The notes below the pieces were generated by a model, which was not told the DNA's origin, did not search any database, and saw only the letters and a program-made list of their open reading frames with translations. A stretch of DNA of 64,000 nucleotides from Octopus vulgaris (taxonomy: Eukaryota), in contig OX597822.1 in NCBI GenBank assembly GCA_951406725.2, positions 114,142,001-114,206,000 of the forward strand, in the 5' to 3' direction. Positions 132 to 44,518 of the stretch are shown in pieces. The position numbers and the translations under genes were made by a program. The number at the start of each line of letters is the position of its first letter. The first letter of the stretch is position 1.

Positions 132-313
132 ATGTGCCGACAATTGAAATTGACGTTTGTGTTGATACTCTATATGAGTTTCTGTTTGGAGTCTCATGCG
201 GCGTCAGACATTTGCACCATATGCCAATGTGGATATTCTAAGACAAATATAGATTGTTCATCTCGGCGACTGACTTCGATCCCGCAACCCATTCCACCGA
301 ATGTTGAAAGTTT
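132..313 (+). CDS. LRR gene, first coding exon: signal peptide + LRRNT cap
   Basis: ATG at 132. MCRQLKLTFVLILYMSFCLESHAA is a hydrophobic leader, followed by CTICQCGYSKTNIDCSSRRLTSIPQPIPPNVESL (LRRNT C-x2-C-x-C...DCS..L..IP). Acceptor ttcttttacAG at 110-111 upstream; donor GTAAGT at 314 (phase 2). Confidence 0.9.
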
Positions 314-1552
314 GTAAGTATTAGACCATTTCTATATATTTTCCGCATTTAATATTTTAAATTATCGTTGGTTATGTTCTAAATACCTCAGCTTTAAACC
401 ATAATGTTATGTTGGAGTAAAAAGGGCAAATATGTTAACTGCCGTTAAGTCAAGTAAATTATTTCTCTGTGTATTTTGACTCAAGGAATCTTTAATTTAC
501 AATATCCGAACTTTGATTATGTTAGTTTATTACATCAAAACTCTTTATGGCAAAACTCTTTATTCAGGGAAGGCAATGTATGAAAACTGTTGCAAAAATC
601 GTTGCATATATTGTTGTTATGAAGGAGAGTATAAAATGGAAGAAATATTCCGATAAATATAGTTCTACTGATCGATATCGAAATGCTGTGCTCCAGTTTT
701 ACAGTAGACAACCACTAATGGATCTACAATTGATTCTAATGAGAAATAATGTTCATGGATCATGCGGCTGGTTTAAAACATGTTACGCGTTCTTTTGTAC
801 GTTTTTACTGTGAGGCGGACAATTCAAATTGGTGATGGAACGCGTGGTGTCTGTCAGCCGGTGATGAGGGCTGTTTGAGTGCTTTTTGTGAGAGTTGCTG
901 TGTGCTTAGGATTGTTTTGTGCTGAGGATTGTTTTATGCTGCTTTGCAGTAGTTCTTTGAGTGTAACGCCATCATTGTTTGGTGGGTGGTACTGACTAAC
1001 GAAAAGGAAGAGCTTTTGTCGTCCCAAGCATGCTAGAACAAAATGAAATATGTTGCGATGTAAAATTGCTACAGAAATACTAAGATATGGTAAAGAGAGA
1101 GAGGTCAAACGTAAAGTTGACACCACCAGATGAAGACAAGGCGGGGAGAGAAAATAAAGTAATAGAGTACAGAACGTTTTCAAAAGAAAAATAAGAGACT
1201 TGAGAACGCAACGAAGAAGGAGATGGAAGAATGCCTAAAGGACCTGAAAGAAAACGTAAAGTTTTTTATTATTTTACAAGAGGAAAAAGATATGGTTCAG
1301 TAGCGGTCACATTTGTCTCCGAAGAAGTGGCAAAAAGATACGTCACAAGGATAGTATCAGGGGGAGGGGCACTTCTGCACAATTACCAGGGTAAACGATC
1401 TACTTTTTCGGTTCGGGAGGCCGTTTTTCGGTCTGAGGCGACTATGAGCCGCCTCTACCAAACGGATGAGATGGAAGGGAGAAATTTCTCTGAAATTTCA
1501 TCGACATCTGAGGAGGAAGCGGTGAAAAAGAACCATTAAATATAAAGTATAT

Positions 1553-2608
1553 ATGAATGGAGGTAGAAAAGTGGAAGTGATTAATATGGAAGCAATTGAA
1601 GAGGCTCTCAAACAGACAGGAAAAGAAATCGTGTACATGACAAAAGGATTAGAATATGGAACCATAACGGTACAATTTAGAAACGAGAAAGCAGCCAGGA
1701 ATATAGCAGCCAAGGTGGTGAGGACGGAAAGAATTAACGTGTTCCCATCGTATTTAAATAGAAAGACCACCAGAATTAGGGTGGAGGGAATACCTCCACA
1801 CCTAGAGGGCGAATTTATAACGGCTGCGGTAATAAAAGGAAACGAGGATAAGGTGGACATCCTCCACGCCATTATGAAATATGAAGGCGTGAGAGGTGCC
1901 ACACTAGTAATGAACATACAGACGGAGACGGAAGTTATAGAAAAGCTTACGGACAGTATAAAAACTGGGAATATTATTATAAGAGTGTGGGTGGAGAGTA
2001 GGGCGCCCAGGTGCTACAAGTGTGGCCAGAGGGGTCACATAAGAGCCTACTGCCCTCCCCCACCAAAGGAAAAAGAAAAGGAAATCGTTGCGGAAGCCCC
2101 AAAAGAGGAAGAAACTAAAGAGAACCAAACAGAAAAGGAAACGACAGAAGAAGAGGAGATGCAGCAAGAGTGGGAAGAAGGAAGAAAAAAGAGAAAAAGA
2201 AAGAAAAAGAAAAACTGTGCGAAGCCCCAACCCACCCCAACACCACCCACACCCTTGGAGACCCATCCTGCCCCTGCAAACAGCGATTCCACCCACTCCC
2301 CGCCTACAAGAAAAACAAAAACAGACACACAGAACAAACAAAGGCCCGATACCTACTTTTTATGTGTTGTGAGGAAGGGGGACACCGAGGACGCAAAAAG
2401 GATTTTTCAGGATGATGTATGGCAAGAGTATGAAGACGGCAGTTACGCGGTGTTTGATTTTGAACTTATGGACTCATTGACGGCCAAGTGTAACGATGTG
2501 CGTATAAAATGGAGGACAGCGTATATGAAGGATGATATGATAGAGAGGTATGAAAGAGAAACGAAGGGTGTGGTAAAAAAGTTTGGAATTGTAATGGGAA
2601 ATGGGTGA
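1553..2608 (+). mobile_element. Gag/ORF1-like protein with CCHC zinc knuckle (non-LTR ORF1-like), no ORF2 seen
   Basis: 351-aa intact ORF with CYKCGQRGHIRAYC knuckle, RRM-like N-terminal half, basic NLS-like KKRKRKKKK; AATAAA at ~2765. Confidence 0.7.
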
Positions 2609-42900: not shown

Positions 42901-44348
42901 ATACAAAGGAAATTCCGCTTACATGCAATGGCAAAAAACTTGTTTCTGTGTAAAAAGTTTAACTGACAAGAAAGTTTCATTCTTCACAGTTTTGTTCTTG
43001 GATTGAGGTAGACGGTGTTTCGAGGAACATGTTGAGCTTTGAATACTTCTTTTCTTTCTTTCGTCATATATCTTACGATAACAACAAACATCTTGAATGA
43101 TGCATTTACTTTTTGTGGTCGTAAGTGCGGATAGTCGTACGTCGAGGTGAGGGTGTACTTAGTTCTTAAAGTTTTACGATATCTATTAAACATTCTAGTA
43201 TTTATAGATTACATAAAAATATAGTATGCTATCAACATTTTGTATATCATCTATAGTAAATATATCATCAAGTATGTCATCTATGTCTGTATATCATATG
43301 TCATCTGCATTTTGTATATTTTCCATATCTATTATATCACTTATATTCACCTGTCATCTATACTATGTATGTCATCTATATACAGTATACCATTTATAAC
43401 CAGTATGTCGTCAATATCCAACATGCCATCTATGTCATCTATATCAGCTATATACAGTAGTTTATCTATATCGTATGCCATCGATATTTCGTATATCCTC
43501 TATATCCTCTACATCTCAAAACTTTCGAATATGTCAGCTGTCTACTGATTATGTTTTATTATATTACGTATGTCTTAAAAGTTTCAATTGTCTATCATCT
43601 AAAGAAGATACCCTCTCTGCATTCTACGTAGATTTAATTAATTCCCTGATAATTGAGAAATTGATATTCCTTTAAAATAATAACATGATTCTTATTTTTG
43701 AGTAAGTTTTAATATTTTCTATCATTTGTATATTTATCGCCATATTTAAATAAGAAGAAAAACTAAAACCAAAAGAATAAGATATATATGATTACCTTAC
43801 TTTTCACTCCTGGTGAAATACATTTTTTTTAGCGTCAACGATTAAAAAAAAAAATGTGATTTACTCAGTTCTTCTCTCTATTACACAGAATGGTGAGTTA
43901 AGTTTACTTTAATGCCTTCCTGTTATAGGTTCAGATCTCCCCTGATTCATCTTCACTCAAGGCTTTAGCGACAGAAAATTGCGTCTAAAATGTTCTACTC
44001 AATACCTGAGGCACCGAATTGCCCCCATCTAATTTCTGGCACCAAACCGCCCCTAATCCATCATTTAAAGGGATCGGTTTACGTGGTTCTAAATATTCTC
44101 CTTGTTTAAATTAACTTTTATTATTCAAGACATAAGCTATAAGAGAGTAGGAACTTAACATATTTTCGGTTTCCACCAGAAATCATATCGATTTATTGCT
44201 GTTATTAACATCTTCTGGCACGAAACATTAATGACGTTATTTTTATATTCTTGCTGGAATTATATTATCCTTCTTTATTGTCAAATACAACAGCGGCTTC
44301 TCCTTACCTCTCAAGTACATTCACTTATGGTTTTGTTTATAATTTCAG

Positions 44349-44518
44349 CGACCTCAGTAACAATAAAGATATGATGTGTGGATGTTACCTGCCAGCCTTG
44401 GTAAATTATACTAAATCAAAATTCAACAGAACTGTGTGGGTAGGAGGCGAGTGTCAGACAGATCCAGGCAATAAGCAAAGCAGAATTATACCTATAAAGA
44501 AATACACGCAATGTCAAA
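44349..44518 (+). CDS. LRR gene exon: last half-LRR + Cys-rich LRRCT-like cap (gene likely continues downstream)
   Basis: aatttcAG acceptor, phase 2. Translates DLSNNKDMMCGCYLPALVNYTKSKFNRTVWVGGECQTDPGNKQSRIIPIKKYTQCQ (DLSNN...CxC..L...C...C). Probable donor GTTAGT at 44519. Confidence 0.82.

Follow-up and report, generated by a model that had tools for sequence, protein, structure and literature searches.

Adhesion GPCRs (aGPCRs) are usually few and conserved, and in the vertebrate members ADGRA2 and ADGRA3 (GPR124/125) the LRR number is fixed. In the VLRs of lampreys and hagfish, variation is concentrated at the concave xxLxLxx positions of the repeats, and the LRRCT is followed by a stalk and a GPI or single membrane anchor. 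In the germline, VLR genes are incomplete; their somatic assembly draws on cassettes and proceeds by CDA-driven conversion (PMC13428168, accessible text). ADGRA2 and ADGRA3 carry their LRR head in the order LRR-Ig-HormR-GAIN (PMC8421042, accessible text). The octopus expansion to which the present gene appears to belong is already published and annotated. As described in the accessible text of Ritschard 2019 (PMC6408891), its group 3 comprises Octopus-restricted class B/adhesion 7TM proteins with a GPS, arranged in tandem clusters and carrying LRRs in 5 of 22 sequences. That study, based on 21-22 sequences from draft genomes, reports branch-level positive selection and no selected sites, with expression of the octopus expansions peaking in the axial nerve cord of O. 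bimaculoides and that of group 3 in the gills of C. minor.

The window, by which we mean the whole 64,000-nt stretch of Octopus vulgaris DNA analysed here, carries nine coding exons that make up the N-terminal third of a gene; 15 further coding exons lie past its end. The features are as follows, with positions beyond 64,000 given as continued window coordinates.

132..313, + strand: coding exon 1, signal peptide (hydrophobic leader) and LRRNT; ATG at 132, GT donor after 313
8069..8140, + strand: exon 2, LRR 1; 72 nt, AG..GT, phase 2-2
14549..14620, + strand: exon 3, LRR 2; 72 nt, phase 2-2; a second copy of the surrounding 2.8-kb block lies at 17162-19977 (93.6% identical)
16722..16793, + strand: exon 4, LRR 3; 72 nt, phase 2-2
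18915..18986, + strand: exon 5, LRR 4, duplicate of exon 3; 72 nt, phase 2-2; the loose end that precedes 27130 in runs X1 and X2 is its 3' end
27130..27201, + strand: exon 6, LRR 5; 72 nt, phase 2-2; spliced to 28513 (X1, X2)
28513..28584, + strand: exon 7, LRR 6, duplicate of exon 6; 72 nt, phase 2-2; spliced to 33492 (X1, X2)
33492..33563, + strand: exon 8, LRR 7, conserved terminal repeat type; 72 nt, phase 2-2; the loose end behind it matches the exon at 44349
44349..44518, + strand: exon 9, last LRR strand and LRRCT-like cap; 170 nt, phase 2-1, no stop
13254..13344, + strand: remnant of a decayed LRR exon that lacks splice sites; a further copy at 17623-17713
24087-24132: remnant of the 3' end of an LRR exon
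44519..64000, + strand, running out of the window: intron 9, 25 kb, LINE- and TA-rich
69639-115430 (G000:C9:114211639-114257430): the other 15 coding exons
69639-72740: Cys-rich domain
76981-78975: HormR-like
80258-92653: GAIN/GPS
93349-104532: 7TM
115378-115430: last exon

The 24 coding exons form one open frame of 3,132 nt (1,043 aa) with its sole stop at the end, and in this gene model AG..GT splice sites flank 22 of 22 internal exons. Encoded in order are a signal peptide, LRRNT, seven LRRs, an LRRCT-like cap, a Cys-rich (Ly6/uPAR-like) domain, HormR, a GAIN domain with an intact HL/T site and a 7TM. A splice acceptor just before exon 1, which would start at 112, makes a 5' non-coding exon further upstream likely. 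The original prediction of a signal peptide-LRRNT exon, seven 72-nt phase 2-2 LRR exons and an LRRCT-like exon agrees with what we located, AG..GT splice sites included, and the variable tetrads are as stated there (GLFN, ILRL, HLGA, YLID, FLND, YLHD, YLSN). Each β-strand is assembled across a splice junction, and LRR exons can indeed be removed without change of frame, which stays open in 128 of 128 subsets of the seven. A framework scan of the window, covering 633 AG-72-GT/GC intervals on both strands, found 11 that scored at least 5/7 LRR framework positions: the seven LRR exons of this gene, all on the + strand (six at 7/7 and one at 5/7), three copies inside LINE sequence and one antisense frame.

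Exon 9 has no stop, closes in phase 1 and is followed by another 71 kb of the gene; the absent stop, the phase 1 donor and the downstream exons rule out a secreted LRR protein ending at the LRRCT. A truncated pseudogene, suggested by similarity to the neighbouring paralogue that fades after continued coordinate 81174, is ruled out by the downstream exon set. The splice that would link exon 9 with the next exon, outside the window, is predicted from phase, open frame and homologue proteins, and the SEA-less joint among the later exons is likewise a prediction; RNA joints cover exons 5-9, and the single frame of head and 7TM rests on the gene model together with homologues.

The gene almost certainly encodes an adhesion GPCR. 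Its TM5-7 exon matches Pfam 7tm_2 above the cut-off (E 5.8e-9), indicating a class B-type 7TM, the five TM exons are in frame, and homologues P0003, P0006 and P0009 each combine LRR, GPS and 7tm_2. An LGR/glycoprotein-hormone receptor was ruled out, since the 7TM is of 7tm_2 type with a GPS. The LRRNT of exon 1 scores slightly below the curated cut-off (Pfam LRRNT, E 2.4e-5), and the LRRCT-like label of exon 9, which has no Pfam match, rests on position, Cys pattern and homologues. The Ly6/uPAR (three-finger) Cys pattern ends CC-x4-CN; the Cys-rich domain matches Pfam UPAR_LY6_2 below the cut-off (E 0.024), and the fold model has a pLDDT of about 50-63 there. The GPS is recognized by Pfam (E 9e-16), and CNHL/TSF is present, which fits the HL/T cleavage consensus (PMC8421042, accessible text).

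By profile, the nearest solved relatives are ADGRG2 (E 4e-97) and ADGRG6/GPR126 (E 1e-85), which are closest in 7TM and GAIN, and by fold the ADGRG6 ectodomain (6v55, E 1.4e-15, with a homologue model of pLDDT 62). A single-sequence fold of P0003 reached a pLDDT of only 35, and a wide structural search, with domains other than the 7TM outside its scope, gave matches dominated by the 7TM. Family members carry a SEA-like module before HormR-GAIN, where ADGRG6 (CUB-PTX-SEA-HormR-GAIN-7TM) has its SEA; in P0003 (258-351) this module is modelled as β-α-β-β-α-β, which fits a ferredoxin-like topology (pLDDT 63-83), but it has no Pfam SEA match, and no usable structure-atlas match was found for the Cys-rich and SEA-like parts. 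Unlike ADGRG6, the present gene lacks the SEA-like module, has LRRs and the Cys-rich domain in place of CUB-PTX, and belongs to a large, fast-turning family rather than being a single conserved gene. It shares an LRR head with ADGRA2 and ADGRA3 but, unlike these, shows no Ig domain in Pfam; ADGRA is absent from the best 60 profile matches, and few ADGRA structures may exist. With the VLRs it shares the order SP-LRRNT-24-aa LRRs-LRRCT, a variable repeat number and the concentration of variation on the concave face. The term "VLR-like" in the original prediction nevertheless had to be given up: the germline gene is complete, intron-split and continues from the LRRCT into Cys-rich, HormR, GAIN and 7TM exons instead of a VLR anchor, and each LRR is a normal spliced exon rather than part of a system of incomplete gene and donor cassettes.

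The downstream exons and the family members that the original prediction had left to be sought were both found. There are at least 51 7TM copies in this genome (60 TM5-7 matches, 51 at E<1e-19), and exon 1 has 40 matches. Octopus proteins, mostly named ADGRG6-like, account for 11 of 12 matches to the neighbour's TM5-7 exon and for 36 of 36 matches to the LRRCT-HormR region of P0003, in word-seeded searches that may miss distant relatives. The family is that of the LRR adhesion GPCRs expanded in octopus ("ADGRG6-like" in RefSeq) and likely corresponds to Ritschard's group 3 of 2019; this last placement goes by described traits (an Octopus-restricted, multi-copy adhesion 7TM family, some members with LRRs) rather than by mapping onto that paper's sequence list or tree. 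Six paralogues, scanned from exon 1 to the last repeat, hold 7, 6, 11, 8, 14 and 31 LRR exons, and the terminal repeat type of exon 8 stands last in all six arrays. The variable receptor family with cassette turnover foreseen in the original prediction is thus what we find, rather than an untranscribed locus or a single-copy orthologue of fixed LRR number. Beyond the 2019 account lie the copy number in one genome, the 6-31 single-LRR exons per gene, the selection on a concave site class described below, repeated loss of the SEA-like module and head/7TM recombination; exon cassettes are not described in the accessible text of that paper. A literature search, with most subscription papers outside it, found no account of the LRR cassette structure or concave-face selection of this expansion.

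Tandem exon duplication within the gene is recent: segments 27010-28394 and 28395-29797, which hold exons 6 and 7, are 1.4 kb long and 95.4% identical. The SEA-like module has been deleted in frame twice independently, as two different deletion junctions indicate. Identity to the neighbour is 91-99% across nine compared exons, of which the second GAIN exon is the last, and 70-89% in those that follow; four genes on contig C29 are 93-99% identical in their later exons, and one of them has a different head (76-85%, LRRCT to HormR). These identity patterns indicate that ectodomains and 7TM halves have been recombined between paralogues.

Selection on the repeats was assessed in 69 disjoint exon pairs (138 of 173 exons, leaving 35 without a partner), matched on their intron flanks only. 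The exons came from similarity and pattern searches and represent part of the family; identical exon-plus-flank copies were collapsed, and 2 of 175 candidates, stop-containing antisense frames, were dropped. At the five concave codons pN was 0.322 against an exon pS of 0.120, a dN/dS of 3.2 (bootstrap 2.3-4.6), and against the concave codons' own synonymous sites the ratio was 2.5 (Fisher p 2e-6). Other exposed codons gave a dN/dS of 0.69 and framework codons 0.18, the latter partly built in because the detection filter fixes some framework positions. Codon by codon, pN was 0.27-0.35 at the five concave positions and at most 0.15 elsewhere. Exon 5 and its duplicate exon 3 differ at 1 of 92 flank bases, yet all five concave residues have changed. 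Synonymous change at concave codons was not significantly raised (0.152 versus 0.113, p 0.16), and local hypermutation at exon ends, of which this gives no sign, was rejected. The 7-fold comparison of dN with intron distance was left unused because a low intron distance was itself the criterion by which pairs were chosen. Against all four close paralogues, pN lay below pS in the GAIN and 7TM exons, whereas in the LRRCT and some other head exons it equalled or exceeded pS, at few sites. These are pairwise counts, not tree-based ones, and gene conversion between paralogues can distort them; on this sequence comparison, the LRR concave codons are under diversifying selection.

We therefore read the locus, with a probability of roughly 0.75, as an intact, spliced octopus adhesion GPCR gene whose diversifying LRR face likely binds a fast-changing non-self or polymorphic partner. 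By analogy with aGPCR biology, the predicted receptor would cleave itself at HL/T in the GAIN domain, and once the LRR arm is bound or pulled, the tethered peptide would be uncovered and a G protein activated. Germline variety would arise by tandem duplication of exons, which the shared 2-2 phase of all LRR exons allows, by point substitution on the concave face, and by ectopic recombination, which would join one binding head to another signalling half. That the ligand is non-self is an even-odds guess from the selection pattern; candidates would be the surface of a microbe or parasite, or a determinant of allorecognition at the epithelia of gill, skin or sucker. More tentatively still, an adhesion GPCR may have given rise to an inherited variable-recognition repertoire, with more than 50 genes and hundreds of single-LRR exons whose faces are hypervariable in the manner of VLRs, and with reshuffling through exon duplication and head swaps onto different 7TM halves; it could be the octopuses' main expanded system of immune or self/non-self receptors, to which exon skipping at a low level would perhaps add. 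The selected LRR face, the five-fold range in repeat number and the swapped heads resemble a receptor system that is in an arms race and couples directly to G proteins, and the family is a testable candidate for octopus recognition of microbes, parasites or self. Members with and without the SEA-like module, and the same head on different 7TMs, form a natural series for studying ectodomain control of aGPCRs.

The strongest competitor, a rather unlikely one in our estimate, is a neural or arm-wiring code, in which paralogues would mark axial nerve cord and sucker cells and each would bind an endogenous partner that co-evolves with it, as in latrophilin-FLRT or protocadherin codes. Duplicates so recent that their introns are still almost identical have already diverged at most concave residues, and a close paralogue has a stop in its 7TM exon; turnover at this rate, we infer, suits conflict better than a stable wiring code. 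In the accessible expression data, groups 3 and 4 have their largest share in the axial nerve cord, with suckers and skin coming next, in O. bimaculoides, and group 3 peaks in gills in C. minor (Ritschard 2019, PMC6408891). Given the nerve cord expression and the lack of selected sites in that paper, a neural role fits as well, and one of the nearest solved relatives, vertebrate ADGRG6, has a role in the myelination of peripheral nerves (PMC12684940, accessible text).

Chemoreceptor families, too, typically show birth-and-death evolution and a binding face under selection. A contact chemosensor, its LRR face binding environmental macromolecules such as those on prey, conspecific or biofilm surfaces, would suit the expression of the expansions in sucker and skin (Ritschard 2019, PMC6408891, accessible text), but this reading overlaps the non-self one, from which sequence cannot separate it, and we hold it to be unlikely.

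Four sequencing runs, presumed to be RNA, were mapped, with GT..AG joints taken as what shows splicing. Joints 27201>28513 and 28584>33492 occur in two of the four (X1 and X2, from two studies), where loose ends match exon 5 at its end and exon 9 at its start, placing exons 5-9 in order; runs X4 and X5 hold no joints between these exons. One 758-nt contig reaches back from exon 8 over a length fitting exons 1-5, and among the matches listed for exon 1 there is no RNA dataset. Combinatorial exon choice, as originally proposed, is permitted by the reading frame, but no skip joint between exons 6 and 8 was seen in the four runs, two of which carried the in-order joints, in contigs that lose rare variants. 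A Dscam-like generator, in which cells skip or include LRR exons so that one gene yields many binding faces, would draw on the freely removable exons and on the strands built across splice junctions, and the ADGRG6 ectodomain is tuned by alternative splicing (PMC12684940, accessible text). Against these stand the joining of exons 5-9 only in order in two studies and the ordinary, strong splice sites of the LRR exons, and we think it improbable. 72-nt phase 2-2 LRR exons are, moreover, common in ordinary genes. Repertoire diversity is probably germline, lying between genes rather than within the transcripts of one gene.

A true VLR analogue, with somatic conversion or recombination among LRR exons and conserved flanks giving cell-specific receptors, would accommodate the sister exons with near-identical flanking introns and different concave codons, the germline recombination between paralogues and the decayed LRR remnants in introns, but it is highly improbable, given a germline gene that is complete and spliced as it stands, run X1 contigs that match exons 6-8 with 0 differences, and concave synonymous change that bears no sign of hypermutation.

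In two "goes back" joints, 27196>27133 and 28582>27134, the two sides are separated by other letters, with 2-4 mismatches; they were read as paralogue transcripts with tandem near-identical exons, and exon repetition in this gene was rejected. One of them fits, by eye, a repeated-exon junction at C29:14.62 Mb.

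The exons in the window (G000:C9:114142001-114206000, in a genome of 2.8 Gb) are part of an intact adhesion GPCR gene, very likely a member of a published octopus expansion; the feature of the original prediction is real, and its label was wrong. Its layout of leader/LRRNT, LRR and LRRCT-like exons is present as described. When 633 AG-72-GT/GC intervals from both window strands were scored on seven framework positions, the six intervals matching at all seven were LRR exons of this focal gene, and its seventh LRR exon matched at five; four further intervals with five matches were rejected as LINE or antisense noise. 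The LRR exons are frame-neutral, as had been proposed, with the reading frame intact in all 128 subsets of the seven, and the β-strand of each LRR takes two variable residues from one exon and three from the next. The continuation of the gene had been missed because intron 9, 25 kb long, is full of LINE fragments and TA runs. With the 200 kb directly downstream added, a protein search with a TM exon from this region returned Octopus adhesion GPCRs in 11 of 12 matches, and six of these proteins aligned to it as a colinear exon series on the same strand as exons 1-9.

Exons of the focal gene (coordinates above 64000 continue the window count; those from 69639 onwards by homologue protein alignment)
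132-313, +, leader/LRRNT exon (exon 1)
between leader and LRRCT-like exon, seven LRR exons of 72 nt each, phase 2-2 (exons 2-8)
44349-44518, +, LRRCT-like exon (exon 9)
69639-69730 and 72557-72740, +, Cys-rich exons
76981-77095 and 78806-78975, +, HormR-like exons
80258-92653, +, five GAIN exons
93349-104532, +, five 7TM exons
115378-115430, +, last exon

In its final form the model comprises 24 coding exons (3,132 nt, 1,043 aa), with a sole, terminal stop and AG..GT at all 22 internal exons. Pfam matches in the gene are GPS (E 9e-16, HL/T intact), 7tm_2 (E 5.8e-9) and, weakly, Ly6/uPAR on a Cys-rich exon (E 0.024); HRM and GAIN were matched on homologue P0009 only, both below cut-off. The best solved relatives by a profile of 27 homologues were ADGRG2 and ADGRG6, and a structure search with a predicted model of another homologue, P0003 (mean pLDDT 62), gave the ADGRG6 ectodomain as first match. 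The neighbour of the gene, tail to tail with it at 262404-162111, is a paralogue in inverted orientation. The gene very likely falls within the expansion of adhesion GPCRs that Ritschard et al. 2019 (PMC6408891) describe as specific to octopus; excerpts of that paper give 21-22 sequences, LRRs in five, expression peaks in axial nerve cord (O. bimaculoides) or gills (C. minor), and selection at branch level with none at site level.

The genome holds at least 40 matches to exon 1 (42 candidates, 40 scored) and at least 60 to the TM5-7 exon (82 scored), at least 51 of the latter at E<1e-19, chiefly on contigs C29, C30 and C31. A strict splice-site pattern found 87 intervals of 72 nt, nearly all LRR exons as judged by eye, against 3 in a reversed control, and all 36 proteins matching the LRRCT-to-HormR region are from Octopus. 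Six genes whose arrays were followed from exon 1 through the final repeat carry 7 (focal gene), 6 (inverted neighbour), 11, 8, 14 and 31 LRR exons. The focal gene itself contains two young duplications, one of 2.8 kb (93.6% identity) and one of 1.4 kb (95.4%), and in each of them an LRR exon is present a second time; its introns also hold three decayed LRR exon remnants. The predicted cassette turnover is therefore real, and takes place in the germline.

Selection was estimated from 175 distinct exon-plus-flank sequences (two antisense false hits removed), paired by intron flanks alone into 69 disjoint pairs with a flank difference of at most 20%. At the five concave codons of each LRR exon, on the predicted ligand-binding face, pN was 0.322 (276/856 sites) against an exon-wide pS of 0.120, giving a dN/dS of 3.2 (bootstrap 2.3-4.6) over the 69 pairs, in a sample biased to sequences reached by searches and with pairwise counts that ignore conversion between paralogues. 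The ratio was 4.9 in the 55 closest pairs and 3.6 (2.1-8.6) in the nine pairs with an exon of the focal locus or its neighbour; it was 0.69 at other exposed codons, 1.3 at the codon following Asn, and 0.18 in the framework, which is partly fixed by the detection filter. Measured against their own synonymous sites, the concave codons gave a ratio of 2.5 (p 2e-6); these synonymous sites were not significantly faster than the remaining ones (p 0.16), a result that speaks against local hypermutation. In comparison with four paralogues, pN was below pS in the GAIN and 7TM exons and at or above pS in the LRRCT, on few sites. Flanks within 60 nt of sister 72-nt LRR exons often differ by 0-2%, with concave codons differing at several residues; the flanks are closer than synonymous sites in part through the flank-based pairing rule, and conversion or splice constraint is perhaps an added cause.

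Signs of a fast-evolving recognition family are well supported, and we have not found it described in print: the literature, as far as covered, yielded no paper on its LRR cassette structure or concave-face selection, and the consulted passages of PMC9712504 hold nothing on the octopus LRR adhesion GPCR family. Beyond what is observed for the gene itself (structure, exon 5-9 splicing, family, selection, mosaics), the pattern of concave-face change points to a binding partner that itself changes fast. We give non-self or allorecognition a probability of about one half as the candidate role. Neural wiring is a distinctly less probable role, and contact chemosensation less probable again. Adhesion GPCRs are cleaved at HL/T, and a tethered peptide activates them upon engagement of the N-terminal fragment (PMC8421042, in part); by analogy, the focal receptor would be cleaved there and activated once its N-terminal fragment is engaged.

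Diversification by splicing, likewise, is rather improbable. Four presumed-RNA runs, available as assembled contigs only, were compared with window 27000-33620. The joints 27201>28513 and 28584>33492 are present in two of them, X1 and X2 (two studies, two species labels). The joining contigs agree with the exons without mismatch in X1, and with one or two mismatches in each exon in X2; their loose ends match exon 18915-18986 at its end on one side and exon 44349 at its start on the other. No exon-skipping joint 27201>33492 occurs among the contigs of the four runs in that interval, and contigs drop rare variants. In-order splicing thus occurs and dominates across exons 5-9, and rare skipping could escape contigs. 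Somatic assembly is very unlikely: concave-face variability is common to VLRs and this family, but the defining VLR feature, somatic assembly from an incomplete germline gene (parts of PMC13428168), is foreign to the focal gene, which is an intact germline adhesion GPCR and not “VLR-like”.

The SEA-like module, three exons between the Cys-rich and HormR exons, is absent from three of eight genes compared, namely the focal gene and two C29 genes. In the focal gene about 11 kb are lost at a junction at 73637; this junction differs from the one common to both C29 genes, so the module was lost at least twice, with phase 1 meeting phase 1 across the gap. ADGRG6 signalling level is set by distal domains and a splice insert beside SEA (PMC12684940, in part), and the loss may by analogy retune signalling of the focal copy. 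Identities compared exon by exon reveal mosaics: the focal gene and its inverted neighbour are 91-99% identical through the second GAIN exon and 70-89% thereafter. The 3' half of the focal gene is common to four C29 genes at 93-99%, and in one of these the head is a different one, with 31 repeats; a further C29 gene has the focal-gene head and a 3' half just 72-86% alike. Such crossed combinations of heads, SEA-like module and signalling halves need recombination or conversion between paralogues.

Several paralogues show further peculiarities. At C29:14620251-14626738 (+), three identical LRR exons and a fourth, nearly identical one follow each other every ~2.15 kb, through either tandem amplification in very recent time or a repeat in the assembly. 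A close paralogue at C29:15326794-15327150 (-) has one TGA in its TM5-7 exon, with eight LRR exons open. The 14-LRR paralogue at C30:18560001-18780000 (-) has Cys-rich, SEA-like and HormR exons, but the 12 kb searched past these exons gave no match to a GAIN exon, and the minus strand immediately downstream has none to TM5-7; this paralogue may be without a membrane part. Among homologous proteins, PF00531 in P0025 and PF13644 and PF20919 in P0023 may be true fusions or merged gene models; P0015-P0017, P0019, P0021, P0026 and P0036 are annotated with LRR and not with 7TM.

The introns also hold putative mobile elements. After exon 9, window 45863-63614 is dense with fragments that we take from their motifs to be LINE-type RT/endonuclease; they occur in either orientation, with long stretches of TA between them. 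Some of them are inverted copies matching at 99-100%, and the neighbour gene contains a copy at 97%. A GC-rich element at 35808-39371 (-), with RT and a GIY-YIG-like C-terminus and flanked by similar ~270-bp repeats, is presumably Penelope-like by its motifs and gave no alignment in the neighbour gene; a second GIY-YIG-like fragment lies at 20095-20817. In intron 1, an open frame of 360 aa that includes a CCHC zinc knuckle (1526-2608, +), and which we assume to be a gag-like ORF1 of a non-LTR element, has a related frame in intron 1 of the neighbour gene. Window 10608-11264 (-) is, presumably, a Tc1/mariner-like transposase fragment.
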